Virus record (IMG/VR): IMGVR_UViG_3300032373_000001
From: a virus
Taxonomy: Duplodnaviria > Caudoviricetes
Direction: 5' to 3' (one strand)
Length of the DNA stretch: 64,000 nucleotides
Positions 50,634 to 64,000 of this stretch are shown here, in pieces (the stretch's first letter is position 1; each line of letters opens with the position of its first letter). The notes beneath the pieces were generated by a model. That model saw nothing but the letters and a program-made list of their open reading frames with translations. It made no database searches and was not told the DNA's origin. Made by a program: the position numbers and the translations under genes.

Positions 50634-51224
50634 ATGGCAAGACGACCGCTGAAGAGCATCCTGAGACGAGAGAGCTGGTGGAGGCACTACTGGGGTCTGA
50701 TCAAGACCTTCTGGAAGGTTGTTCGAGGTCCGCTCTTGTGGGGAGTCCTCACAGGGTTCTTGCTCGGAGGATTCTTCGCGGGGTCATCTAAGGCCCCGAG
50801 CACTGCCTTGTGGCAGTGCTCCCTGATGTTCGGGGTCATCTTCAGCGCCTACGGGATGGCCCTGTCGCAGGAGTTCAACACCGACCGCGTCCGCCTCATC
50901 CCTCCGTACAAATTGCCCGAGGGGGAAGTCTGGGTCTTCTACCGGGAGGGTGATCGCAAAGGGGAGGGGGAGAGCCGCCGGCAAGACCTCTCCCGCTTGC
51001 GGGATCTGGGCTACGGCAAGACCGTCTGGGTGGGAGGGTTGCTCATACCTCTGAGCGAAGCCTTTCTGGCAGGACCTCAAGACTTGAGGGCGCTCCAAGA
51101 GGAAACGGAGGAGCGCGGAGGCCCTGCGAAGCCTATCGTGACTGACCTGTATGAGCGATCTCCTCAAGACCCCGGTGACCCCCGGCGTCCAGACCTTCGT
51201 CCGACGCGACCCCGATACACCTAA
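50634..51224 (+). CDS. membrane protein
   Basis: Two hydrophobic helices (LLWGVLTGFLLGGFFA; LMFGVIFSAYGMAL). Confidence 0.7.
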   Translation: MARRPLKSILRRESWWRHYWGLIKTFWKVVRGPLLWGVLTGFLLGGFFAGSSKAPSTALWQCSLMFGVIFSAYGMALSQEFNTDRVRLIPPYKLPEGEVWVFYREGDRKGEGESRRQDLSRLRDLGYGKTVWVGGLLIPLSEAFLAGPQDLRALQEETEERGGPAKPIVTDLYERSPQDPGDPRRPDLRPTRPRYT

Positions 51225-51702
51225 GCCCACCGCCCCCGACCGGACGAAGGAGGTGGTGCTGCCGCCGGGGAGTGCCACCCCAGGAGGGGCGGGTCGGGAC
51301 ATCCCCAAGTTCGAGAACAACACCCCGGACTCTGACTCGAACATCCAGCCCCGGACTCTGGGGGTGCCGGGGGAAGAATACGGGGTTCCGGTCAAGAAGG
51401 ACTACAACAACGTCACCCGGCGCACCATGACCAGTCGCCTGTCACCGCTGAGGGTGGTCGTGCTGGCGGAGTACAAGCCCCCCTCAGAGCGGGGAGGCAA
51501 GGACGGAGACCGCCAACGAGAACAGAGCCGGGACCAACAACGGAAAGACAACATCTACTATCGGAAGAACCGCTCCAAGATCAAGCGGGATAACCGGAGG
51601 CGATACAAGCAGGACTGCGTGCGGAACAACAACTGCAACCGCCGCAGGGACAGGGCGCGAAAAGACCCCGAGTTCTACAGGCGAGGTCCTCACCGCGACT
51701 GA
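51151..51702 (+). CDS. Pro-rich protein with very basic C-terminus
   Basis: 183 aa; R/K/Q/N-rich tail; GCCTATCG 14 nt upstream. Confidence 0.65.
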   Translation: MSDLLKTPVTPGVQTFVRRDPDTPKPTAPDRTKEVVLPPGSATPGGAGRDIPKFENNTPDSDSNIQPRTLGVPGEEYGVPVKKDYNNVTRRTMTSRLSPLRVVVLAEYKPPSERGGKDGDRQREQSRDQQRKDNIYYRKNRSKIKRDNRRRYKQDCVRNNNCNRRRDRARKDPEFYRRGPHRD

Positions 51703-51717
51703 GGGTAGAGCGGAGAC

Positions 51718-52356
51718 ATGAAATTCCGTGAAGTCTTCCTGAGCCAGTGCCGTCTCTCCCCCCAGGGTAAAGTCCGGAGCTTCCCCGGCGACGAATGGCT
51801 CGAACAGATGCGAGAGCTGGCCGTCGTGATGGGAGAGGAAGACCCACTCCTCTGGGTCACGGAAGACGGTAAATCTATCTGGGGCATCAACAATCTTCGC
51901 TCCTGGATCCCCGAGAACCTCCTGGAAGAAGGCGATGCTCAGTACGCCAAAGACGCCGTCCGAGACGGAGTGCGGTCCTGTAGCCTGGAGGAGTGGGAAC
52001 AGGACCTCGTAATCCAAGACCTACTTGACGTGTTGGACGGCGCAGCGGACCGCAACAGTCTCGACTACGCGCGAGCCCTATTGATGAGATGCCCAGAAAG
52101 CGTTGGGAGGACCAGGGTCGGCGACACGGGAGTGGCGAGCAGCCTCCGGCTGGATGGATCGCCCCTGTGGGAAGCGATCCTCCGGTTCTCCAGCAACGCG
52201 CACGAGAACGGGGCAGGCAAACTGTGGCATTTTGGCCCCCTGGAATGGCTCACCCGCGCGTACTTGGGGGAGCACCGCTACACTTCCTTGTACCTCTTGC
52301 CTCTACTGAGGCAACACCTTCAGTCCAAGACCTCTACGGGCAACGAGGCCAACTGA
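51718..52356 (+). CDS. hypothetical protein
   Basis: 212 aa, GGAG RBS. Confidence 0.7.
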   Translation: MKFREVFLSQCRLSPQGKVRSFPGDEWLEQMRELAVVMGEEDPLLWVTEDGKSIWGINNLRSWIPENLLEEGDAQYAKDAVRDGVRSCSLEEWEQDLVIQDLLDVLDGAADRNSLDYARALLMRCPESVGRTRVGDTGVASSLRLDGSPLWEAILRFSSNAHENGAGKLWHFGPLEWLTRAYLGEHRYTSLYLLPLLRQHLQSKTSTGNEAN

Positions 52357-52511
52357 CCTCGGACGGACTCGGGCAGCGGGCCTTGCACCGAGATGTGTAC
52401 GAGCACGACCAGCCGAGGGTTGAGCCCCTCTTGCCTCAAGAGGCGCATGACTTGAGCCCGGACTTCAGACTCACTGGGTCCGGGCTCAGGCTGAATTACA
52501 GCACAGGTCAC
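52320..52511 (-). CDS. small hypothetical protein
   Basis: GTG overlapping upstream stop; overlaps convergent gene by 37 nt. Confidence 0.35.
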   Translation of the reverse strand: MTCAVIQPEPGPSESEVRAQVMRLLRQEGLNPRLVVLVHISVQGPLPESVRGQLASLPVEVLD

Positions 52512-53167
52512 CGGAGCGTCAGCTTCTTCCCCGACTCCAGCCACTGATCGATCTTCTTGAGGACGGACTTGGCCGGACCGAAGGTCTTCTCGTAGCCGTT
52601 CAGGACCAACCGTTGGAGCTCCCGGAGGTCCTCGGGCTCCGAGGAGTCGGACTTGGACCCCATGCGGGCACGGATGCTCTCCACCGGACGCAGGAGGTTC
52701 CCCAGCCGATAGATGTTGGGGTTCCTCCGGCTGACCTTTCGGTCGTAGGCCGTGATCTTGTGGACCAGAACGGCAATGAAGTTGTTGACAGTGGGTTCCA
52801 TGGCACCTTCTCGGAGGGTGGATGCGTGCCGCAGGATCTGCTGACGATCCTCGTCACCCTTCGGGAGGAAGGATGCCAGGCGGACCAACGAACGGAAGCG
52901 GTTACGGCGACCGGGGCGCCGCAACTCCCTACGGCTCTTGGCAGAGTACTTCTGAATATCTGCCAAGAGCTCCAGGTAACGGTCTACCTGATTCCTGCCT
53001 ACGATCTCCGCGGCGGCTTCCCATGCCTGTTCTGCCTCAAAAGGGAGACCCGACTTCCTGGCTCCCTCGCCCCCTTCGATGAGGCTCACAGCATCACGGC
53101 CTAAAGACCGGCCCAAGGATCGCAGGAGGCGTTCGGCCTCTACACGTTTCTGTTCGAAATCGCTCAT
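52508..53167 (-). CDS. protein with internal LVRLASxLPKGDE leader module
   Basis: SLVRLASFLPKGDEDRQQIL matches the N-terminus of 63484-63864. Confidence 0.75.
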   Translation of the reverse strand: MSDFEQKRVEAERLLRSLGRSLGRDAVSLIEGGEGARKSGLPFEAEQAWEAAAEIVGRNQVDRYLELLADIQKYSAKSRRELRRPGRRNRFRSLVRLASFLPKGDEDRQQILRHASTLREGAMEPTVNNFIAVLVHKITAYDRKVSRRNPNIYRLGNLLRPVESIRARMGSKSDSSEPEDLRELQRLVLNGYEKTFGPAKSVLKKIDQWLESGKKLTLR

Positions 53168-53385
53168 TTGAGTGGGTCCTCCTTACCGGGGGACCCCTAT
53201 AGCAAGGCAAGCGGCTCAATCTGCCTTCTGCGCAGCCACCGCCTTCAGCTCCTCGTCCCCGATGAAATTTCGGTGGCTCAGGCTACCATCCTGACCCTCA
53301 GCACCCTCTGCGGCGGGTTAGCTGTCCTGATCTCCGCAGCTGGGGTCGCCTTCGACCAACTGCGGGAGGAACTGAAACCGGAGGA

Positions 53386-53544
53386 ATGATGGCTGAGAAA
53401 TGGGAAGTCGGATTCTACGCTGGGCACCGGAGCGAATGGGTCCAGATCGCAGAAGGAACCCACGACTACTGCCGAGGGTTCCTAGAAGGGCTGGGGTACG
53501 GGGATGGTCCCAAGGACCACTACAAGATCCGCAAGAAGCCTTGA
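53386..53544 (+). CDS. small hypothetical protein (52 aa)
   Basis: Manual translation MMAEKWEVGFYAGHRSEW...KIRKKP; GGAGG RBS; stop abuts convergent gene. Confidence 0.5.
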   Translation: MMAEKWEVGFYAGHRSEWVQIAEGTHDYCRGFLEGLGYGDGPKDHYKIRKKP

Positions 53545-53997
53545 TCAGGCGGCGTTGAGGGTCTTGCTCAGAGAGATGGTGCCCGCAGGCAGGTCACTGT
53601 CGGCACCGACTGTGAGCGTGAGCGTGAGAGACTTCGCGACGTCCTCATCGGCAGCGATCGCGGTGATGACGAAGGTGGTGTCGAAGTTCTCGAAGAGCGG
53701 GATGAAGAACGAGTCCGTATCGTCGAGGGCGTCGTCGCCTCCCGTAGCGAAAGCGCGGCCCATGACGCTCTTGATCAGGAAGGCTCCGCTGTCCCCCGAA
53801 GCCTCCAAGTAGAGGCTGGAGTTGCGGTCAGAGGTGATGGTGAAGGTAACGTCGGTGGCTGCCGTGATGTCACCGAAGGCTCCATCACCGGTGATGATGA
53901 GGGAGGGGAAATCCTCGGCCTTATTGACGACGGCTCGGAGCGCGGCCTTGGTGTTGGCCTTCTGGGCGTAGAAGGGGGGAAGGCGTCCTGAGGGCAT
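53545..53997 (-). CDS. putative virion structural protein
   Basis: 150 aa, A/T/D/S-rich beta-strand composition. Confidence 0.6.
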   Translation of the reverse strand: MPSGRLPPFYAQKANTKAALRAVVNKAEDFPSLIITGDGAFGDITAATDVTFTITSDRNSSLYLEASGDSGAFLIKSVMGRAFATGGDDALDDTDSFFIPLFENFDTTFVITAIAADEDVAKSLTLTLTVGADSDLPAGTISLSKTLNAA

Positions 53998-54088
53998 GGG
54001 GGGTCTCCAGTTGGGGTCTCACGACCCCTCAAGCAAGAGCCAGTCTAATGAAACCCCTATACAGAAGCCCTTGCTGTGGAGGACCCCT

Positions 54089-54478
54089 ATGAATAAGCTC
54101 GCGAAGATCCTGGACCAAGAAGGCGTGCGGAAGGTTGCCGGAATGAAGCAGCTCCAGCAGGCCATCTACCGGGATGCCATTCAGCACATCGTGCGGGACA
54201 AGGAGGCCGAGGCCGCAGCCCTGGAACTGGCCAGGACTTCCGACGCCTTCTACGTCGGCACCTTCCAGGACCTCTACGACGTGTTGCGCTCCGACGAGGG
54301 TGAGGAGGAGGTGCTGGACGCGATCCACGCGATCCTGATTGATGTGGGGGATCGCGTCAAGAACTACTTGAGCAACAAGTGGAACTTCGAACCCGGATAC
54401 CAGGTTCCCAGCATGAACCTGAGCTGGTCACCCGACGAGCGGGACAGCTACCTCCGAGAGTTCTCCCGGCTGCTCTGA
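54089..54478 (+). CDS. protein with MNKLAxILxxEG leader
   Basis: GGAGGACCCCT-ATG; N-terminus like 59058-59753. Confidence 0.8.
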   Translation: MNKLAKILDQEGVRKVAGMKQLQQAIYRDAIQHIVRDKEAEAAALELARTSDAFYVGTFQDLYDVLRSDEGEEEVLDAIHAILIDVGDRVKNYLSNKWNFEPGYQVPSMNLSWSPDERDSYLREFSRLL

Positions 54479-54479
54479 G

Positions 54480-55037
54480 TCAGTACTGGATCGCATCCGA
54501 GACCTGAACTGCGTAGATGTGGGGACGTGCTGGGTCCAGCTTACTGAGCTGGACCTTACTCCGTCGGAACGGACGCCCGGACAAGAGGCGCAAAGCCCCA
54601 CTCTTCCAGTCCTTGTTGGAGCGCGGTGATCTCAGCGGTCCCGCGCTCCAACACAAGCCCATCTCAGCTGGCCGCTGGCCGGCAGGCTTTGCGCCTTCTC
54701 GGATGACCGGAGTGTCGTAGAGGATCCCATCCTGGTCCTCCTCCGTCTCCCACCGAAGAATGTCCCCCTCGGCGTAGTAGTCCTTGCTGGGAGCCAAAGC
54801 CACGAGGGCGCAAGGGTCCACACGCACAGAGATCTCGATCCAATCTGCCGAGGGGTTCTGGCGTTCGATTTCTTGGCAGTACTCATCGAGGCGGTCGAGC
54901 ATCGCATCGACCCCTTTCTGCTGGGCGGTGTCCCACTGGTCCAGACGTCGGAGTTGGACCATGATGCGGGAGGCTACCTCCACTTCCTCTCCGGGGGCCA
55001 TCTCTCCGGCACCCAGGTTCCGGATCGTGTACTTCAT
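54480..55037 (-). CDS. hypothetical protein
   Basis: GAGGAGG RBS, MKYTIRNL start. Confidence 0.7.
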   Translation of the reverse strand: MKYTIRNLGAGEMAPGEEVEVASRIMVQLRRLDQWDTAQQKGVDAMLDRLDEYCQEIERQNPSADWIEISVRVDPCALVALAPSKDYYAEGDILRWETEEDQDGILYDTPVIREGAKPAGQRPAEMGLCWSAGPLRSPRSNKDWKSGALRLLSGRPFRRSKVQLSKLDPARPHIYAVQVSDAIQY

Positions 55038-55047
55038 CGAATCCTCC

Positions 55048-55518
55048 TCAGATACGGACAATCTCAGCACCCGGCCACCCGCTCATCCGGGACCCGCGAC
55101 GGTCCTGAACGGTCACTACCAGGTGCAAGCCTCTCACAGCAGCGCGCTTCGCCAAGTCCTCGGCTTCCTCCGAGTAGGGCAAGCAGCTATCTTCCAGGCG
55201 CTGAAGCCCGTCCACAAGGATCGCCGAACCCTTCGGGAATTCATGGATGGCCCGCCACAGGTAGCCCATCGAGCAGTCTGAGTCGTTCCGGATGACCTTC
55301 TCGTGGGTGGTGTCCTCGGGCTCTGGGCACAACTCCTCAGAGTTGTGCGTTTCCGGGGTCATCAAGACGATCTCGGGGATGTCTTCCCGAGCGCAGTAGG
55401 CTTGGAAGATGCGCCTCAAGTAGGTGCTCTTGCCTGTTCCTGCCTGACCTCGGATCATCCAGGTCTGGCCAGCCTTGGCCGACCCGACCTCTTCCAGCTT
55501 CTCTTCGATTGGTGACAT
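55048..55518 (-). CDS. small RecA/KaiC-fold P-loop ATPase
   Basis: IRGQAGTGKST Walker A, AILVDGLQ Walker B, LVVTVQ strand. Confidence 0.7.
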   Translation of the reverse strand: MSPIEEKLEEVGSAKAGQTWMIRGQAGTGKSTYLRRIFQAYCAREDIPEIVLMTPETHNSEELCPEPEDTTHEKVIRNDSDCSMGYLWRAIHEFPKGSAILVDGLQRLEDSCLPYSEEAEDLAKRAAVRGLHLVVTVQDRRGSRMSGWPGAEIVRI

Positions 55519-55548
55519 GTAGTCCTCCCTGGGGGTTTACCGGGTCCG

Positions 55549-55914
55549 TTAATCGACCCGGATGCTCCAGCGCCACCCAGGATAGTCCTCCAAGAGGCGG
55601 AACCCCTCCTCCACGTAGGGAGCATCATCCCAGTCCACGCTCGCGGGGCCAACGTAGCCGTACTTCTTCTCGAAGGCTTCTTCCGACAGCTTCTGGTCCT
55701 GGGCGACGCAGTGTTCAAAGTAGGACACTCGTATCCACCACTCCTCTGCCCAGGAACGGTCAGTGACGGGGTGGGTCGCTCGGATGCGGCGGAGACTGCT
55801 GAGGAGGTCGTATCCGAAGTAGCTCATCGTGCCCAGGTGACCCACTCGGTACGCATCCTCTTCGCCGGTCTCTGGGTTCACGAAGTCAATGTAGACGTCA
55901 CTACTCATTGCCAT
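55549..55914 (-). CDS. hypothetical protein
   Basis: 121-aa ORF in small-gene operon. Confidence 0.7.
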   Translation of the reverse strand: MAMSSDVYIDFVNPETGEEDAYRVGHLGTMSYFGYDLLSSLRRIRATHPVTDRSWAEEWWIRVSYFEHCVAQDQKLSEEAFEKKYGYVGPASVDWDDAPYVEEGFRLLEDYPGWRWSIRVD

Positions 55915-56083
55915 CCCCCCGAAGGTGTCGGGAAGCGATCTCGCGCTCCTCTTCCGTCATGTCATACCAGGGCTGGTCCATGCGGTCGAGGATCTCATTC
56001 TCTTCGGGGGAGTCCTCGCCGTGCTCCCGGCGGATACGCAGTAGCTCTCCGACGAGGTGCAGGTAGGTCTGGAGGGCGCTCAC
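55901..56083 (-). CDS. small hypothetical protein
   Basis: 60 aa, overlaps neighbours. Confidence 0.65.
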   Translation of the reverse strand: MSALQTYLHLVGELLRIRREHGEDSPEENEILDRMDQPWYDMTEEEREIASRHLRGDGNE

Positions 56084-56436
56084 TTGAGCAAGACTCCAAA
56101 GAAGCTGCCTTCCGGGGTGTGCCCGACCACCCAGCCGTGTCGGTACAGGGTCAGGGTCTCATCTCCTCCGGAGTCGTCTTCCGCCAGCGGATCCTTGAGG
56201 ATCGCCATAGGGCTGGGAATCTTGCGCTCCACCCCGACCCATTCGTTCTCGGTGTACTTGAAGTGATCCGCGCAGTCGTACATGCTGCCGGCGATGCGAA
56301 CCACGACATCCGAGATGTGCTCCGCGGAGGGGTCGGAGCGCAAGCACTCGTCCTCCCGCCACAGGACCAGGACCTTGTTCGGCCAGTCCTCGGGCACCTT
56401 ATCCTTGCTCCAGACCCGGTCCACTTCCATGCGCAT
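56080..56436 (-). CDS. hypothetical protein
   Basis: AAGGAGG RBS. Confidence 0.7.
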   Translation of the reverse strand: MRMEVDRVWSKDKVPEDWPNKVLVLWREDECLRSDPSAEHISDVVVRIAGSMYDCADHFKYTENEWVGVERKIPSPMAILKDPLAEDDSGGDETLTLYRHGWVVGHTPEGSFFGVLLK

Positions 56437-56512
56437 GAGGTTGCCTCCTTGGGGGGCTTACCGGAGGCCGATGAAAGGCTTATACGGAACCCACAACAAC
56501 AGGGAGTGAACC

Positions 56513-57550
56513 ATGCGAAGTGTGCTGGCAAGAATCCTCGTCGAAGAGAACATCCGAGTAGCTGCCATCAATGACGCACAGGGGTGGCAACTGGTGCGGG
56601 AAATGTACGACGGAGCCACCACCCAGGGGAAACGGAACAAGGGCGAGAGCGCCTTCATGAACAACTGGGGCACTGACAACGGGTGGGACTGGATCGGCTT
56701 CAAGGAGTTCGCCCGCGACTTCTCCAACTGGGTCTCAATGAAGGCCATCCAGCTCCAGGGAGCTATGGACACCTGGCAAAACCAGAACGGAGAGACCATC
56801 ACCCCATCCGACGACGAGAGGGTGGACTGGAGCCACAACGCAGTCCTCATGGGTCGGCAGTTCTTCGACTCGGTCATGCGAAACCCTGGCATGCTCCCCC
56901 GCCGGGGAGGGCCGCTGCACCACTACAAGATCATCAACAAGGGTCAGGACCCGGCCTTCCTTGCAATCGCCCGGAAGTCCATGGGACGCCCCTTCACCAA
57001 TCTCCCGGGCAGTCCCCCCAACAAGCGGTGGGTGGAAGATGTCGCCATGGGACGCGGATGGGCGGACATGACCGATGACCTTCGCGCCAAGTACCTCACC
57101 GAAAACCGCATCGGACCTCCGCGCAACATCCCTGCCCGCGTCAGCCGCTCCAAGTTCTGGGAGTTCTACTGGTATCCCAGCTGGTCTCCGAATAGCCACG
57201 GCAAGGGCAACTACCAGCGATTCACACCTTCCGGCGCTGACGTCGGGCTGACCCTCGCAGTGAGCTGGGTCCCGACCAGCACCTCCCGGAAGAAGTCAGT
57301 GCTGGAAGAAGCCCTGCGGGACGCGGAGCAAACCTTCCGGGCATTCCGGATGCGTCTGGACACGGTGGTGGACCCCCGCTACAAGTTCACCCTCGAAGAT
57401 GTCGTCGCCGGCAAGCTCCGCCGGAAAAACTACAAGGGGGACTTGCAGCTGCCCCACACCACCAAGGTGGTCAGCATCCCCCTGATCGGAGATGCTGCGG
57501 TCGACAAGGCTACGATGCAGTCGATGGCCTCATCGCCCATCGCTCCCTGA
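56513..57550 (+). CDS. protein with LARILxEExIRVAA leader
   Basis: 345 aa; N-terminus related to the MNKLAxIL family; ATGAAAGGCTTATAC upstream. Confidence 0.8.
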   Translation: MRSVLARILVEENIRVAAINDAQGWQLVREMYDGATTQGKRNKGESAFMNNWGTDNGWDWIGFKEFARDFSNWVSMKAIQLQGAMDTWQNQNGETITPSDDERVDWSHNAVLMGRQFFDSVMRNPGMLPRRGGPLHHYKIINKGQDPAFLAIARKSMGRPFTNLPGSPPNKRWVEDVAMGRGWADMTDDLRAKYLTENRIGPPRNIPARVSRSKFWEFYWYPSWSPNSHGKGNYQRFTPSGADVGLTLAVSWVPTSTSRKKSVLEEALRDAEQTFRAFRMRLDTVVDPRYKFTLEDVVAGKLRRKNYKGDLQLPHTTKVVSIPLIGDAAVDKATMQSMASSPIAP

Positions 57551-57604
57551 CCGCATTCGGGTAAGTGCTTAATAGTCCGCCCCGGTCACCTAAGTGGCTC
57601 ACCC

Positions 57605-57982
57605 ATGGGTGAGCCACTTACAATTCAGGTAATCCCACGTATGGCGAATACCTGTAACCACGACCGAACCCTACAACTCACAGGCAAGGCGGTCGACTCC
57701 AAGTGGTGTAAATGGCCCAACGAAGCCGAATCCGGTCATGATCGGGGACTTCCCATGCCTGACATTCCAGGACTGGTCAACGGGGACTACATCGACCTTG
57801 AGGTCTGCATCGACTGCGGGAAGGTCTTGGGACTGCCCGATGCGGAAGACATCCTACAGAAACAACCTGTCAAGACCCCCCGCGCAACATCCAGGAGGAA
57901 GACCCTCCGAGAGATGCAAGAAAGCCTTCCGGAGTGTCAGGTCTGCGGGGATGTTCCCGGAGCGGGCTGCCCTGCCTGCTAA
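57605..57982 (+). CDS. hypothetical Zn-binding protein
   Basis: GDYIDLEVCIDCG and CQVC..CPAC. Confidence 0.7.
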   Translation: MGEPLTIQVIPRMANTCNHDRTLQLTGKAVDSKWCKWPNEAESGHDRGLPMPDIPGLVNGDYIDLEVCIDCGKVLGLPDAEDILQKQPVKTPRATSRRKTLREMQESLPECQVCGDVPGAGCPAC

Positions 57983-58479
57983 GGGGTGATGCCCAAGAAG
58001 GTCTTCAGCGCGGTTCGGTAGTGGTCCAGGGCTTCCCGCTGGACCACTACCGAGGGGGTGTTGTTGAGCATGATGATGGCGGGGTTCACCTCCAACATCT
58101 TCCGGAAGACCCCATGCTTAAACAACATCTTCCGGAAGACCTCATCCTTAAACTGGAAGGGGTAACCCAACGCTTCCAAGTTGAACTGCCGCACTCGGTC
58201 GTATCCGAAGACCACAACCAGCTGCGAGTAAGTCCACAGAGGAATGTCGTAGCAGTTGTCCGGGGGACGCGACCCGCAGTAGGTATCTTCGAACAAGTAG
58301 GCGAAGCCGAACAGGCCTCGACGGAAGCCCAAGACTGTAGCCTCGGGCATCACTGGCGGAGGGGCCTCCAGGCCCAACGACTTCCTCAGCTCCTGCGCCT
58401 GCACCAGAAGGTCAGGGCCAGCGGAGATCTGCAGGGCCTCTTCGTACAGGTTGAGGAGGGCCTCTGGATAACCACTCAT
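57979..58479 (-). CDS. hypothetical protein, paralogue of 58476-59039
   Basis: PEALLNLYEE..QAQELRKSLGL. Confidence 0.75.
   Translation of the reverse strand: MSGYPEALLNLYEEALQISAGPDLLVQAQELRKSLGLEAPPPVMPEATVLGFRRGLFGFAYLFEDTYCGSRPPDNCYDIPLWTYSQLVVVFGYDRVRQFNLEALGYPFQFKDEVFRKMLFKHGVFRKMLEVNPAIIMLNNTPSVVVQREALDHYRTALKTFLGITP
58093..58152. repeat. 30-bp tandem duplication (28/30 identical)
   Basis: Units 58093-58122 and 58123-58152, each with palindrome TCTTCCGGAAGA. Confidence 0.9.
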
Positions 58480-59039
58480 AGGTCGAGGGCCTCTGCCAGT
58501 GCGTCCTTGTATCGGGCTATCCGCCCCCTCCCCTCATCTAAGGGAGAGTGCCGCAAGACCTGCCAAGTCAGAGGCGAGTACGGGGCCTGGAGACGGAGGC
58601 CGAGCTGCTTCAGCAAAGACCAGACGGCAGCCTCTCCGATGACAGGAGCCAAAGTCCCTGCAGTCCAAGCCGGGGCGGTGAGGTAGCTGCAGCCCTCTTG
58701 CGGGTAAGCGCTGTCCCCAGGCTCGGTGAACGTGCGGCACGCTGGCATGTACGGGGGATTTTGGGCGGGGGTCACACCCCTCGAATCAGGGTCGAATACC
58801 TCAAAAATTCGGGGCGACGGGTTGAACTCGACGCAGAGGTTGTTGAGGACGATGGGGTGCGGGGCCAATCCCATCGACTTTCGAAGCTCTTCTGCCTGAC
58901 GGAACAGAGCCTCCTGACCGACCATGTGGCGCCGGAAACACTCCACGTAGAGAAGGTGGAGCGACTCCGGAAAGGAGGCCAGCACAGCCTGCTCAACTTT
59001 CGGGAGGTTGCAATAGGTGGGAGGAGTTGTAAGCATCAA
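58476..59039 (-). CDS. hypothetical protein, paralogue of 57979-58479
   Basis: PESLHLLYVE..QAEELRKSMGL. Confidence 0.75.
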   Translation of the reverse strand: MMLTTPPTYCNLPKVEQAVLASFPESLHLLYVECFRRHMVGQEALFRQAEELRKSMGLAPHPIVLNNLCVEFNPSPRIFEVFDPDSRGVTPAQNPPYMPACRTFTEPGDSAYPQEGCSYLTAPAWTAGTLAPVIGEAAVWSLLKQLGLRLQAPYSPLTWQVLRHSPLDEGRGRIARYKDALAEALDL

Positions 59040-59057
59040 GAGTGCTTACGGGGTGGG

Positions 59058-59753
59058 TCAGTACGCCCACCCATCGTAGTCAGTCCAGGGCTTCTTCTTC
59101 CCCTGCCCCATCCCTCGGGTGACCATCTTCCCGCCGAGCTTGCCCAGGGCCTCGAAGACCTTCTTGAGCGTCGTCCCGTGCTTCCGGGCACCAGCCTCCG
59201 TGACCATGGCCCGGAAACCGCCCAGCTGAGAGTCGATGTCCTCCAGATACGCGGAGGTGAACACCCCACCCTTCTTGCGGGGCTGCCACTGGAGCACGCG
59301 AACCTCACCAGGGGTGAAGAAGTCACGGTTGCCCCGCGCAGCATCACCCAAGGTCAGGAGTTCCTTCTTGTAGGGGCTGGAAGACCACTCACGCTTGCGG
59401 GCCTTGTCGACCTCGGCCCCCAAGAGCGCCGTCGCATCCCGGAGGAACTTCCCGTAGGGTCCCTGGCGGACCTTGGAGGCAGGATAGGCGAGGCCCTCGA
59501 TGTAGGACTCCGCCAAGGTCAGGGGCTGGTGTCGGAGGACCGCTTGAGCGAGATCACGAGCAGAGCCCGTGGAAAGAGCACTCAAGATATCCTGGGGGAT
59601 GGGGCTGCCCATCCCATCGACGGGATCCTCGGGGTCCCAGTCGTCCTCTTCGTAATCATCCCCCCACTCGTCTTCCTCTTCCTCCCAAGTGTAATCCTGA
59701 CTGGAAGTCTTGCGGAGTCCCTCTTCTCGAAGGATTTGAGCGAGCTTGTTCAT
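59058..59753 (-). CDS. protein with MNKLAxILxxEG leader and acidic linker
   Basis: MNKLAQILREEGLRKTSS then EEEEDEW acidic tract; AAGGAGAACCC-ATG. Confidence 0.8.
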   Translation of the reverse strand: MNKLAQILREEGLRKTSSQDYTWEEEEDEWGDDYEEDDWDPEDPVDGMGSPIPQDILSALSTGSARDLAQAVLRHQPLTLAESYIEGLAYPASKVRQGPYGKFLRDATALLGAEVDKARKREWSSSPYKKELLTLGDAARGNRDFFTPGEVRVLQWQPRKKGGVFTSAYLEDIDSQLGGFRAMVTEAGARKHGTTLKKVFEALGKLGGKMVTRGMGQGKKKPWTDYDGWAY

Positions 59754-59851
59754 GGGTTCTCCTTACGGGGAAGGGGGTTCGATAGGCAGGTCAGGTAAGG
59801 GTGGGGGGACTCTGCCCCATAGTTCTTCGGGGTGGGGCGGGAGGCGAAGAA

Positions 59852-60265
59852 ATGGACCCTGACCTGAAGATGTCCTTAGAGCTCGCAGTGCTGAAGATTC
59901 TCCCCAAGCACCTTAGCGCCTCCCTTCGGGAGGGCTGCGAGCGGGCAAAGGCCCAGGATGACGAGAGAAGAGTACAAGCGAACCTTGCTGCGGCTCGGCT
60001 GTTCAGCCTCGCTCATGGAGAGGGTCTTCTGGAGCTGTTCGGGGAACCGGCTCGGAGTGCAGCGGACCTTCCTGTCTGGTTCACCTCGGAAGGGCTGGTC
60101 ACCTTCACGGGGAAGGGCGTCGAGTTCTGGAGTAGGACCCCTCTGGGGGAAGTCCTACAGAAGCTCGAAGGGGTCCTTGGGAAGGACTACCTTCTTGAGT
60201 ACGGGGACAGGTACGTCTGGGATCTTCGGACGGCCCTCGAGAAGAGGTTGGCGGAGGAGTGGTAG
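59852..60265 (+). CDS. hypothetical protein
   Basis: GGGAGG RBS, MDPDLKMS start. Confidence 0.65.
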   Translation: MDPDLKMSLELAVLKILPKHLSASLREGCERAKAQDDERRVQANLAAARLFSLAHGEGLLELFGEPARSAADLPVWFTSEGLVTFTGKGVEFWSRTPLGEVLQKLEGVLGKDYLLEYGDRYVWDLRTALEKRLAEEW

Positions 60266-61065
60266 AGATGACTGAAGAAGAGAAGTACTGGGAAAAGACG
60301 TTGGGGCACATGTGCATGTCCCTCGGCCAAGCGTGGGAGTTGGAGCGCAAAATCTTCCTTGAAGAGGACGCCGCAGGGCTTGACCTGGAGACCCTACTAC
60401 TCAACACCAAACAATCCGTCCTTACGGCCCTCAGAAAAGCGACGGATAGAAAGTCTGGAGGCAAGGGCTACCCCACGGAATACAACCTGTGGAGAAAGGT
60501 AACTTCTGCCCAAGTCCTCGGAATAGGGGGAGATCACCTGGAGGAACACTTCGGGGAAGAAGACCCCTACGGAAAATGGGAGCAGGGTCTCGCGGATCTC
60601 AGAACCCTCGGAGACAAAGTGGTAGCCCACTCAAACCCAGAGGGCCTTCTCCAGAAAAACGAGGACGGGGAAAACATAGAAGAAAAACAGACAGGGCGGG
60701 CGATCTCAAGCGAGGCATCCTTCGGGAAGACCAGCATGCACACCATGGTCGGGGTTTGCAAGGGAGCCCTAAACGCCGCCGAAGAAACCTTCCCGAATTT
60801 GAAAGGTCGGCTCCACCGCCACTGCCTCCCGAAGTTCAAAAGCGAAGAGGAAGTCGGCCCGATTGCGGAAGCCCTCAAGAAAAGGTTCAAGAAAAACCTC
60901 CGGGTCTTCTTCCTTCGTGGGGAGACGTTCAAATACAAATTCCTCGGGGAGGAAGAAGCTCCGCAAGAGTGGCGGGAACTTTTCGGGAAAAGGGACGGAA
61001 GAGGGTTCATCTTCTATGACGACCCTGGGGTCCGAAAGCTACTCGCCGAACAGGTCGAAGACTGA
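60259..61065 (+). CDS. hypothetical protein (A-rich coding sequence)
   Basis: 268-aa ORF. Confidence 0.75.
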   Translation: MVEMTEEEKYWEKTLGHMCMSLGQAWELERKIFLEEDAAGLDLETLLLNTKQSVLTALRKATDRKSGGKGYPTEYNLWRKVTSAQVLGIGGDHLEEHFGEEDPYGKWEQGLADLRTLGDKVVAHSNPEGLLQKNEDGENIEEKQTGRAISSEASFGKTSMHTMVGVCKGALNAAEETFPNLKGRLHRHCLPKFKSEEEVGPIAEALKKRFKKNLRVFFLRGETFKYKFLGEEEAPQEWRELFGKRDGRGFIFYDDPGVRKLLAEQVED

Positions 61066-62379
61066 CGGTCCCTCCTCTTGAGAGTCCTCCTGGACTACTC
61101 CGAGGAAGTCCAGGAGCCTCTTGAGGCAGCCGTCGGGGTCCTGTAGGAGTTCCGACTCCCAGAGGAACAGGGAAGCGACCCGGACCCCAGCATACTCAGC
61201 CTCCCGTGCCAGGACGTACTGGTCGGGGGGCATTCCTGTAGCCTCCTCCCGGTGCCAGTAGTTGCCCAGGACCTCGACCACCTTCGAGGAGCGGACCTCG
61301 TTGGGCGGCATCCCCTGTTCGATGAGGGCTCGCTGCTCGACGGAGTAGGCCACGAAGTCAGGGTTGCGGCGCTTCCAGGTGCCGTCAGGCTCCCTCACGG
61401 TGAGCCAATAGGCATGATCACCCGTGTAGGTGAGAAGAAGGCCAGCGAGCCGTTCGAGGATCTTCTCCGGGCCGGTCTTGGGGGGCGGCGGGAGGATCCC
61501 AGCCTCCCATAGATTCTCCGCGCCGTAGCGAGCGAGCCATGCCTCCTTGCGCAGCCTCAAGGACTTCTTACGGATCGTAGGAGCTCCGGGATACACCTTC
61601 TGGTACTGGGCTGAAGCGATGCCGTGCTGAGACGTGAGGTGCCAGCTCAAGCTCTTGAGCCTCTTTCCGCAGATCCGGCAGACGACGAAGTCTTTGCCCT
61701 GGGAGGCACCCTCCCCGTAGAGCTCCGGATCCCGCCGCATGTACTCGGACCACGCCTTCCAGTCCTTGTCCTCGTAGGGGCCAGGGCAGGCGTTCTTGTG
61801 TAGCCCGATCCGAGTCCCCGAGAGCTTCTGGCCGCAGGAAGGGCAGGGGACCTGGTGCGCCTCTTCCCACCTCTCTCGGTTGAGCTTCTGCCAAGGCTCG
61901 CAGACAATGAGATGTGCTCGGCGGGCGTTGTTCGTCAAGAAGCCTCGGTTGCAGCCTTTGCACTTGTAGGGGAGGCTCTTGTTGTAGACCCACCAGTGGG
62001 CGCAGTTGATCCTGTGGGAAGGCCCGTGCCCTACATGACCGCAGGCGCAGCCGTCCTTGGGGGCCTCTGCGTCCAGGTCTACTTCGGGGAGAGTCTCTGG
62101 CCCAGGGCACTCTGAGAAGTGTTCACGCTGGGAGGTGACTCTGGCTCCGCAGATCCCACAGGGCTTCACCTTCCCCTCCAAGAAGCCTGGGCACACCCGC
62201 TCATGGTTGGCCCTGGACCGAGGGGCGCTGAACCCCATCCCGCACCCCTTCCGGCACTTGTGCGGGAGGTTCTTCGACCACTCAATGTACTGAGGGCATT
62301 CACGTCTATGGGGGTTGAGGTATGCGGGGTGGAAGTTGTTCCCGCACCCTTCACAGGTTGCCTTCTTCGCTCGGGCCAT
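61039..62379 (-). CDS. multi-zinc-finger Vsr/DUF559-like endonuclease (putative free-standing homing endonuclease)
   Basis: Six CxxC..HxxxC-type units and one CRIC..H..QH finger, then NPDF..VVEVLGNYWH..LFLWESEL nuclease motifs. Confidence 0.8.
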   Translation of the reverse strand: MARAKKATCEGCGNNFHPAYLNPHRRECPQYIEWSKNLPHKCRKGCGMGFSAPRSRANHERVCPGFLEGKVKPCGICGARVTSQREHFSECPGPETLPEVDLDAEAPKDGCACGHVGHGPSHRINCAHWWVYNKSLPYKCKGCNRGFLTNNARRAHLIVCEPWQKLNRERWEEAHQVPCPSCGQKLSGTRIGLHKNACPGPYEDKDWKAWSEYMRRDPELYGEGASQGKDFVVCRICGKRLKSLSWHLTSQHGIASAQYQKVYPGAPTIRKKSLRLRKEAWLARYGAENLWEAGILPPPPKTGPEKILERLAGLLLTYTGDHAYWLTVREPDGTWKRRNPDFVAYSVEQRALIEQGMPPNEVRSSKVVEVLGNYWHREEATGMPPDQYVLAREAEYAGVRVASLFLWESELLQDPDGCLKRLLDFLGVVQEDSQEEGPSVFDLFGE

Positions 62380-62525
62380 CGGCTATCCTTTCTTAGGTTA
62401 GATAACCTTACCCGAATGGGGCGCAGAATCAAAAACTTACCCGAAGCAGACGCGCCTTCGTGCCTACTCCACGCCCAAACTAAGGTTGTTTAGGGTTTAG
62501 CGAAAACGTAGGTTAAACGCCGATT

Positions 62526-63425
62526 TTAGGTGAAGTTGCGGGGGCTAAGTACGCCTCGACCGACGTGGCTCCCAAAGGCCGACCGGACCCCCCGCCCGAA
62601 GCGAGGTTGTTGTAGTCCCCGCAAATATTTCTCAGTTTGCTGCTTGGCAGTAGTCAACTTATCCCACTGTTCCTCAGCGTTCCTCTTGAGGTCCATGTAG
62701 GAGGAGGTCTTGTCCACGTCGAGAGAGATCCCCCCGATCGAGTAGTTGAAGCTGTCAGCCGTCCATCTATACGCCAGCATCTGAGCAGCGGTGACCAGCC
62801 CGCCCCAGAGCAGCGCCGACTTGTAAGCGGGACGCTTCTGGCACATGGCATCCACCGTGGGATAGAGGCGGTCGGTGTTGGGTGGGTGGAGGTTCCACTT
62901 CCAGACGGCGATCTCCAAGAACTCAGCGAACTCCTCATCCGTCCAGATGTAGCCGAAGACCTGGTTGTTGCAACCGATAGAGCCTTCCCCTTGCGGGGGA
63001 CGGAAGCGATAGACTCGGTCGGGGGAATTGTCCCCGGTCATAACCCTGAGCTTTCCTATCAAATCCTGAACACAGGCCGAGTAGGGGGAGTCGGGGATCT
63101 GGTTGTCTCCGACCACGCCAAACTCCATCACCACCTCTTCCTGCGGAGAGGTGGACTCCTTGCGGAACTTCCATCGGATCCGGTAGCAGCCGATGGCGGC
63201 GCTGGTCGGAATCAGCAGTGCCGCGTAGTATTCGCCCACCTGGGGGTTGACCGGCGTGCGCTGGTCGGTGCCGATCAAGACCTCTTGCCCCGTCTGGGGG
63301 TCCACGTAGTAGACGGCATAGGAAATCGAGAAGGCGTTGGTGGGGTTGCCGGTGTCGTCAACCATCTCAATCCAGAGGTCTCCGCGACCCAGCGTCTGCC
63401 CCTGTTCGAAGGTGGTAGTGCTCAT
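62526..63425 (-). CDS. putative head-tail adaptor / neck protein with N-terminal Ig-like domain
   Basis: KLRVMTGD...IWTDEEFAEFL, SFNYSIGGISL resemble adaptor motifs; CCTATAA upstream. Confidence 0.55.
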   Translation of the reverse strand: MSTTTFEQGQTLGRGDLWIEMVDDTGNPTNAFSISYAVYYVDPQTGQEVLIGTDQRTPVNPQVGEYYAALLIPTSAAIGCYRIRWKFRKESTSPQEEVVMEFGVVGDNQIPDSPYSACVQDLIGKLRVMTGDNSPDRVYRFRPPQGEGSIGCNNQVFGYIWTDEEFAEFLEIAVWKWNLHPPNTDRLYPTVDAMCQKRPAYKSALLWGGLVTAAQMLAYRWTADSFNYSIGGISLDVDKTSSYMDLKRNAEEQWDKLTTAKQQTEKYLRGLQQPRFGRGVRSAFGSHVGRGVLSPRNFT

Positions 63426-63483
63426 AGATGAAGCCTCCCGTTAAGGAGGCCCACCTTATAGGCTGGGGAGGGCGCAAGGAACC

Positions 63484-63864
63484 TTAACGCCAGCCGAGCT
63501 CCGTCGCGGCTTCGTCCTCATCCATGCCCTTGTAGGTCCAGCCATTCCGGTTGGACCAGGAGAGGTCATAGTTGTCGCCGCCGCGCTTCAGGTCCTTCTC
63601 GAGGATCTCGTAGATAGCGCCGGGGACGTCCTCACCCGCCACCATGTCCCCGAGCTCGTCCCGGAGATCCAGGAGGTCGACCGAATCCAGGGTACGGTCA
63701 TTCACTGCGATCGTCACCATGTTCCGATCCACCCGGAGGGTGACGTTCTTGTAGCTGGCCTTCTTGAGTCCCGCCAGGATGGCGCGTCGGTTCTCGTCTC
63801 CCTTCGGGAGAGAAGAGGCGAGACGGATGAGGGCAATACGGTCTTGCTTGCTGATCTTGTTCAT
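63484..63864 (-). CDS. protein with N-terminal LIRLASSLPKGDE leader
   Basis: MNKISKQDRIALIRLASSLPKGDENRRAILAGLKKAS; AGGAGAACCC RBS; CCTTATAG upstream. Confidence 0.8.
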   Translation of the reverse strand: MNKISKQDRIALIRLASSLPKGDENRRAILAGLKKASYKNVTLRVDRNMVTIAVNDRTLDSVDLLDLRDELGDMVAGEDVPGAIYEILEKDLKRGGDNYDLSWSNRNGWTYKGMDEDEAATELGWR

Positions 63865-64000
63865 GAGAGGGTTCTCCTGGTACATGTAGCCCTATAAGGC
63901 TAAAAAAAACCTGCCGTAGCGCTTGGTGCCGATGAGGAACCCGTTCTTGGCCCGCTGGGTGGACCTGTGGTTGCCCTCATAGCTCTGGACGAAGTTGTAG

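Follow-up and report, generated by a model that had tools for sequence, protein, structure and literature searches.

A stretch of phage DNA of 64,000 nt, IMG/VR record IMGVR_UViG_3300032373_000001 (referred to in its whole length as the window), codes for a set of proteins that share one or the other of two short peptides, the type-A and type-B tags, and are otherwise unrelated. Here we describe the tags, the protein parts attached to them (cargo), and the evidence that makes them candidate capsid-targeting signals of a huge phage. The five peptide strings from which the original prediction had started were all found at the positions given for them (Table 1).

The window corresponds to the reverse strand of ena:ERZ27251221:k141_3662258 (410,989 bp). 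It was extended by exact-protein look-ups (a 38 kb walk) to record positions 155,436-257,285, 102 kb in total, with 113 predicted genes. The window has a GC content of 62% and codes for PolA, a DnaB-like helicase and an SNF2 helicase. The capsid protein, which the walk reached, has 85% identity with its counterpart in LR745208.1 (an uncultured phage), 50% with the one in Tunturiibacter phage Tunturi_5 and 39% with the one in Bacillus phage G; this places the window phage among the huge phages of the phage G lineage. No matches came from megablast against a phage collection or from a PolA-based locus search in IMG/VR, and neither Pfam nor PHROGs had a match for any tagged protein.

Two tags on unrelated cargo

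BLASTP similarity between tagged proteins stops after the tag, at 12-25 residues for type A and 20 residues for type B. Considering 47 cargo pieces from six genomes, we obtained 42 BLASTP clusters; the sole cargo cluster with more than one member was made of pieces of two multi-tag proteins. In the 102 kb of the window phage there are five copies of type A and three of type B (B1, B2 and B3, the last one in the head operon), all on cargo unrelated by BLASTP. The claim that unrelated proteins share short leaders thus holds, and similarity over whole proteins, which would have meant ordinary paralogy, was not found. At the level of sequence comparison this supports leaders that are portable modules on unrelated cargo and excludes ordinary paralogy.

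The C-terminal domain of A2 (residues 124-231) is 51% identical to P0009, a protein of a 222-kb relative. P0009 starts with a type-B tag, whereas the homologous A2 cargo carries type A; tags A and B, therefore, replace each other on one cargo. In the same relative the gene after this B-tagged A2 homologue (L117:6709-7800) has a Pfam AcrVA2-like match in precomputed annotation. The term 'leader' itself fits in part: the tags are mostly N-terminal, but they are also present at C-termini and inside proteins and are, therefore, better described as docking modules than strictly as leaders.

The type-A core, L-[AR]-x-I-L-x-x-E-G-L, is a short amphipathic helix; read from the sequence, it has two and a half turns and ends at Gly, and L4, I7 and L8 share a face. 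Leave-one-out hidden Markov models (HMMs), run on 1454 six-frame pieces, recovered A1, A2, A4 and A5 each as the top non-training match (E 0.0002-0.05), with E ≥ 0.23 for the best non-member. Of the type-A trio proposed at the outset, A1 and A2 were thus retrieved, but A3 was not (rank 24, E 13). When all N-termini of the 102 kb were clustered de novo, a type-A cluster of five and the type-B pair emerged, and no other real N-terminal family; A3 was paired there with one unrelated protein only. The likeness of A3 to type A is limited to the upstream box, its position, a loose LARIL..E pattern and the motif RVAA, and an Atlas search with A3 gave only a sub-threshold DUF4240 lead. We regard its membership, judged by sequence, as doubtful.

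The type-B core, D-R-x-x-L-I-R-L-A-S-x-L-P-x-G-x-E-x-R-x-A-I-L-x-G-L, spans ∼30 residues, and the pair B1 and B2 is real (phmmer E 2e-5). The description of the B2 tag as internal needs correction: P0011, 89% identical to B2 residues 88-219, has its tag directly after MSDF and is without B2 residues 5-91, therefore the position in B2 reflects an insertion of ∼87 residues that displaced an N-terminal tag. AlphaFold2 (AF2) with an eight-row alignment predicted for the B tag a helix at residues 6-17, a loop and a helix at residues 24-32 (predicted local distance difference test, pLDDT, 91.8); for B1 without an alignment the model was too poor for use (pLDDT 52.6). Foldseek found no match in PDB at E ≤ 0.001 for the 33-residue model, a query of a length that seldom scores. 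An assignment of the tag to an XRE-type helix-turn-helix was dropped, the second half of such a domain being absent. Judged from the alignments, neither tag is a Sec/Tat-type signal peptide, which would have a hydrophobic core of ≥10 residues behind a basic N-region: each is amphipathic, with charges over its whole length.

One could explain such short similarities by ordinary divergent paralogy or by chance. This explanation, which we find barely credible for the families, is really applicable to A3 only, a protein with a leader scoring at noise level. It does not account for the recovery of members by leave-one-out and cross-genome HMMs, for the 42 unrelated cargo clusters, or for the eight B tags from at least five contigs, conserved in columns beyond those demanded by the search pattern.

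Wider searches were limited by the length of the peptides. A word-indexed homologue search with A1 residues 1-40 returned the query alone, as the index wants more shared words than a 13-residue tag has. A profile of ten type-A N-termini, compared with 1.84 billion representatives, retrieved at E ≤ 0.001 the training members only, with one exception, because the type-A tag is too short for a database of such size; a flavodoxin-repeat protein was rejected as a type-A match, being unrelated, with a score that was the sum of six chance repeats.

Table 1. Tagged genes, their upstream elements and other features of the window and its extension (aa, amino acids; RBS, ribosome-binding site)
Feature	Position	Strand	Description
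A1	54089..54478	+	129 aa; type-A tag at residues 1-13 (MNKLAKILDQEGV), then RKVA|G
A1 upstream cassette	54056..54088	+	CCTATA box at -33; extended RBS GGAGGACCCC
A2	59058..59753	-	231 aa; type-A tag at residues 1-13, then RKTS|S, acidic stretch, C-terminal domain
A2 upstream cassette	59754..59786	-	CCTATC box at -33; GTAAGGAGAACCC immediately before ATG
A3	56513..57550	+	345 aa; doubtful type-A member; RVAA at residues 15-18; leader at noise level
A3 box			CTTATA at -34
B1	63484..63864	-	126 aa; type-B tag at residues 1-33 (window 63766-63864), then KKA|S
B1 upstream cassette	63865..63899	-	T-run; CCTTATAGG box at -34; GGAGAACCC
B2	52508..53167	-	219 aa; type-B tag at residues 89-112; window 52820-52903 takes in the following RHA|S
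B2 upstream cassette	53168..53203	-	GCTATAGG box at -36; GTAAGGAGGACCC
A4, A5	L001:4579-4968, L001:5267-5659		Two further type-A genes, 0.1-1.2 kb beyond the window end
Sixth type-A candidate	record 180986		Weaker; start MRKKLAYSLEQEGVAKVAR
Head module	32 kb beyond window		Protease 484 aa (phrog_18299), acidic scaffold 393 aa, decoration-like protein 223 aa
Head module, continued			Major head protein 290 aa (phrog_2522, E 9e-51), 204-aa gene, then B3 (third type-B protein)
P-loop protein	55048-55518	-	156 aa (GQAGTGKS), between A1 and A3 among small genes; weak nSTAND/AAA_22/NACHT matches in precomputed annotation
Zinc-finger protein	61039-62379	-	446 aa; several Cys/His zinc-finger units, Ros/MucR-type finger match (Pfam E 4.5e-6), C-terminal domain without family assignment

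Upstream sequences and tag codons

The RBS context GGAG(A/G)ACCC, predicted for four of the five genes, was found and turned out to be specific. GGAG[AG]ACCC occurs 12 times in the 102 kb, but among the 113 genes it precedes a start codon only at A1, A2, B1 and B2; the combination of an upstream box with GTAAGGAG[AG]ACCC is common to A- and B-tagged genes, in line with co-regulation. The box itself, C[CT]TAT[AG/C], is present at A1, A2, A3 and B1, with GCTATA in its place at B2, so it does not extend to all five genes, and it lies 33-37 nt upstream of ATG rather than the 20-30 nt first given. In a loose form the C[CT]TAT box is found upstream of 15 of the 113 genes (2.9 expected; enrichment about five- to eight-fold); it is not exclusive, as non-tag genes are preceded by it too. 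A scan for sigma-70 promoters in window positions 51000-64000 (13 kb) gave none, and terminators were at chance level. Two further features of the predicted gene arrangement did not survive: only A1 and A3 are alone on their strand, so not all tagged genes are single-gene units, and the 'early-type' character of neighbouring genes was unsupported.

Upstream of tag genes of relatives (L029, L060, L062, L117:5945-5965) and at 190530-190560 of the window phage's own record, many regions have CGGTAG with a CTAT box 4-8 nt later. The arrangement suggests a longer, putative phage-specific promoter, GGTAG-N-CTAT[ACG].

Given that the combination of box and RBS context is specific to tag genes here, the conserved 5′-ends could represent an expression cassette (promoter, RBS and first codons) with a peptide that has no role of its own. 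The start region of A1 is indeed less folded than shuffled sequences (z +2.0); the other three of the four start regions folded are unremarkable, and no RNA structure is conserved among them. The tag codons differ by 2-7 synonymous changes per gene pair over 14 codons, and serine is encoded by AGC in one tag copy and by TCC, a non-adjacent codon, in another. The synonymous changes together with the lack of a conserved fold exclude recent DNA copying and a signal at RNA level. Judged from the codons, selection is on the tag peptide, not on the DNA. Conservation at the amino-acid level, tags located internally and at C-termini, and the many tagged genes of relatives that are without the RBS context make the expression cassette a very improbable explanation.

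Tags in related phages

A degenerate DNA pattern for type A led to one IMG/VR and JGI contig, G001 (115 kb), where an HMM built from the window phage's own four members only detected five clear and two borderline N-terminal copies. G004 and G006 have type A too, in the form xLRxILAEEGL and in one case C-terminal. A type-B pattern led to five IMG/VR contigs of 100-288 kb with capsid proteins 78-91% identical to that of the window phage; a profile of eight tags found 3-13 type-B copies per record in them. Type-B copies are mostly N-terminal (e.g. MPKSLTASDRSALIKLAS...), others being internal or C-terminal, and one protein of 878 aa has three B tags. Among bacterial genomes the type-B DNA pattern gave no convincing tag copy; an HD-type protein of Nitrospirota that matched this pattern was rejected as unrelated.

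LR745208.1 had no match to the A or B profile. De novo N-terminal clustering showed that eight of its proteins start with M(T)TLRSKLIRLAHENPALRPQLLPLLKEA[A/G], a divergent B-like hairpin.

Some type-A open reading frames (ORFs) consist of the tag only: G001:C1:73977-74033 (-), with 19 residues, and G004:C1:248857-248895 (+), with 13 residues followed by a stop. By their sequences these ORFs resemble what is left of tag cassettes, or cassettes whose slot is empty. The 878-aa protein with three B tags (L072, G006:C1:36262-38898) and a 201-aa protein with two (L073, G005:C1:32870-33475) have in common LKKHQF[DT]SE[ND]NPNPKGNDKDGDG, a stretch that resembles a calcium loop, DxDxDG. The 878-aa gene is located where the window phage has its 887-aa multi-enzyme effector, before a conserved zinc-ribbon gene.

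Flanking motif, head genes and proposed capsid targeting

The 'basic-X-small' motif reported to follow the leaders is the one that we found concentrated in head proteins. Of 35 N-terminal tags, 17 are followed by the motif [KR]xA[SAG] at a distance of no more than 14 residues, while only 2.9% of 856 control proteins have it (binomial p 2e-17); with internal and C-terminal tags it comes just before the tag (KRAA, RRAS, RLAA). In the scaffold [KR]-x-A-[S/A/G] is present 8 times (1.04 expected; p<0.002 in composition-preserving shuffles), in a 132-aa head-module protein 3 times (0.31 expected) and in the 887-aa multi-enzyme protein 9 times (2.75 expected); for the whole gene set the numbers are 83 observed and 69 expected. 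All relatives keep the motif in the capsid protein, at residue 24 (K/R-L-A-A|S), and at the N-terminus of the protease, and in five of five scaffolds it is kept as P-x-P-K-K-A-S.

Tagged genes are located inside head operons in three genomes. B3 of the window phage is two genes after the capsid gene; in G005 the capsid gene is immediately followed by that of a 201-aa protein rich in Lys, Glu and Asp, with B tags at both ends; the scaffold and decoration genes of LR745208.1 have a tagged gene between them.

Modularity, tag exchange, conservation at the protein level, the common flanking motif, its concentration in head proteins and some type-B sites in head operons are direct observations, from which we infer docking, cleavage, timing and delivery. 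We consider it on balance probable that A and B are interchangeable, removable capsid-targeting tags that follow a T4-like logic. A tag would dock its protein onto the assembling prohead, either at the scaffold core or at the inner capsid surface, so that a changing set of unrelated small proteins would be enclosed in the head. The head maturation protease would then cut at [KR]-x-A|[S/A/G] between tag and cargo, i.e. after N-terminal tags and before C-terminal ones, and the cargo would be freed within the head; that the motif is a cleavage site at all we likewise infer.

Several observations weigh against this reading. Most tagged genes lie outside head modules, surrounded by replication or small genes; the head-operon genes have no individual copies of the box, and the box could be placed in no timing class. 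In its strict form the motif comes after only some half of the tags, several having no recognizable site (...EGLSLPN, ...EGLTRDEV), and, since the motif is partly inherited with the tag, the 35 tags are not independent events. No receptor for the tags was found. At the search sensitivity applied, both tags were missing from phage G and Tunturi_5, and among cultured members none bears them. The type-A core resembles a scaffold repeat, AMLEEMLAEEGM, weakly (1-2.3 bits, shuffle p 0.003-0.013), and this resemblance is missing in the window phage's own scaffold. Prediction of a complex of scaffold, capsid protein and B tag scored 0.01 with the mark at 0.32, which is no evidence either way.

With so many tagged genes among replication and small genes, one could think of a hub other than the prohead: a phage or host machine (the neighbouring MoxR-vWA pair, for instance), a replication factory, a chaperone or a pathway of export. 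The motif would then be incidental or belong to another protease. B3 is indeed a neighbour of MoxR-vWA genes, and a tag that is N-terminal, internal or C-terminal would suit a generic docking module. Such a hub, which we think rather unlikely, leaves unexplained why the motif next to the tags should be the very one that is concentrated in the scaffold, in the protease and at the N-terminus of the capsid protein, why it always sits between tag and cargo, and why tagged genes recur in head operons of three genomes. The MoxR-type AAA+ gene and the vWA/DUF2201 gene (L022:10470-12860; record 162972-165347) are situated beside the head operon and adjoin B3.

The tags could also be modules of self-association or stability (oligomerization helices, degrons or chaperone handles), which would set the amount or assembly state of accessory proteins and have no role in transport. 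Both are short amphipathic helices, and the three B tags of the 878-aa protein or the two of the 201-aa protein could cross-link. Still, a degron or an oligomerizer needs no flanking site oriented for excision, and the exchange of A for B on one cargo implies that the two tags share a destination, not that they have a partner specific to their fold; we find this explanation quite unlikely.

Among known systems the closest to the proposed capsid-targeting tags is that of phage T4, where a 10-residue capsid targeting sequence (CTS), carried by internal proteins IPI-III, is all that packaging requires and is cut off by gp21, and where Alt is processed at either end (PMC9026906, citing Mullaney and Black 1996). 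In both cases a short N-terminal peptide is found on otherwise unrelated, fast-changing proteins. In T4 it is followed by a site resembling other sites of the head protease, as may be the case for the candidate site that comes after about half of the tags. T4-related phages have varying sets of CTS-bearing proteins, similar to the tagged sets here. However, there is no sequence likeness, and T4 cleaves after Glu, while the tags and the candidate site [KR]-x-A|[S/A/G] have no Glu at P1; the tags are, therefore, analogous to the T4 CTS family, not members of it. Further differences are that here there are two interchangeable tags, that type B, a helix-loop-helix, is ∼30 residues long instead of 10, that tags are also internal, C-terminal or multiple per protein, and that the system, described here from sequence alone, belongs to a phage G-like lineage.

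The scaffolding protein of P22 has a C-terminal helix-turn-helix coat-binding domain, which has also been used for loading foreign cargo into capsids. Similarly, the small helical hairpin modelled for type B, with its basic residues, could dock onto an HK97-fold shell, and the charged scaffold-like protein next to the capsid gene in G005 has this hairpin at both ends. No sequence or fold match to the P22 domain was detectable with so short a query. The two differ in that the five aligned scaffolds (that of the window phage included) are without the B module, and this module is found on dozens of non-scaffold proteins, from which it appears to be removable. Cargo-loading peptides of encapsulins are short, terminal and attached to diverse cargo too, which they direct into an HK97-fold shell; their sequences are different, the shell is a cellular compartment rather than a virion, and the peptides stay on.

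In phiKZ-like giant phages such as SPN3US many head-internal proteins, with propeptide-bearing ejection and inner-body proteins among them, are cut by the prohead protease at a short motif (PMC5694885, PMC10052503). Processing of head-internal proteins in a giant capsid is a common feature, though no more than predicted for the tagged proteins here; the propeptides of those phages are long and are not a shared portable tag, the motif ends in Glu, and the lineage is unrelated. The candidate motif also resembles the A|S sites of herpesvirus assemblin.

A more general version, which we offer tentatively and put at less than an even chance, is that in phage G-related huge phages tags A and B and the LR745208-type variant, together with protease sites, would form a general capsid cargo code, from which the packaged and presumably injected set of proteins could be read in the sequence; the type-A tag may even have come from the scaffold AMLEEMLAEEGM repeat, with cargo mimicking scaffold self-assembly. 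If so, proteins carried into the cell by phages of 300-500 kb could be listed genome by genome: dozens of fast-turning-over proteins as well as multi-enzyme polyproteins. Such proteins, including the multi-enzyme effectors, would likely be early weapons against host defences, and for an uncultured lineage a rule of this kind would be among the few handles on its infection biology. As capsid addresses, the tags would be natural loading signals for very large capsids; two unrelated tags exchanged on one cargo, with apparent function from either end, would go beyond what is described for T4.

The scaffolds of the window phage and of G003-G006 (alignment A5) have one to three (E)AML(E/Q)xMLAEEGM repeats, with a weak likeness to ILAEEGL of the type-A core, the window phage's own scaffold having only a degenerate copy; as judged from sequence, homology of the scaffold repeat to tag A is only a lead. 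The head proteases of G006 (G006:C1:101733-104435, L070) and G003 (G003:C1:74888-78949, L071) are 900 and 1353 aa long, compared with 484 aa in the window phage, and the homologous parts of their genes are split into two or three blocks. From their sequences, both of these relatives seem to have intein-type insertions in the protease gene.

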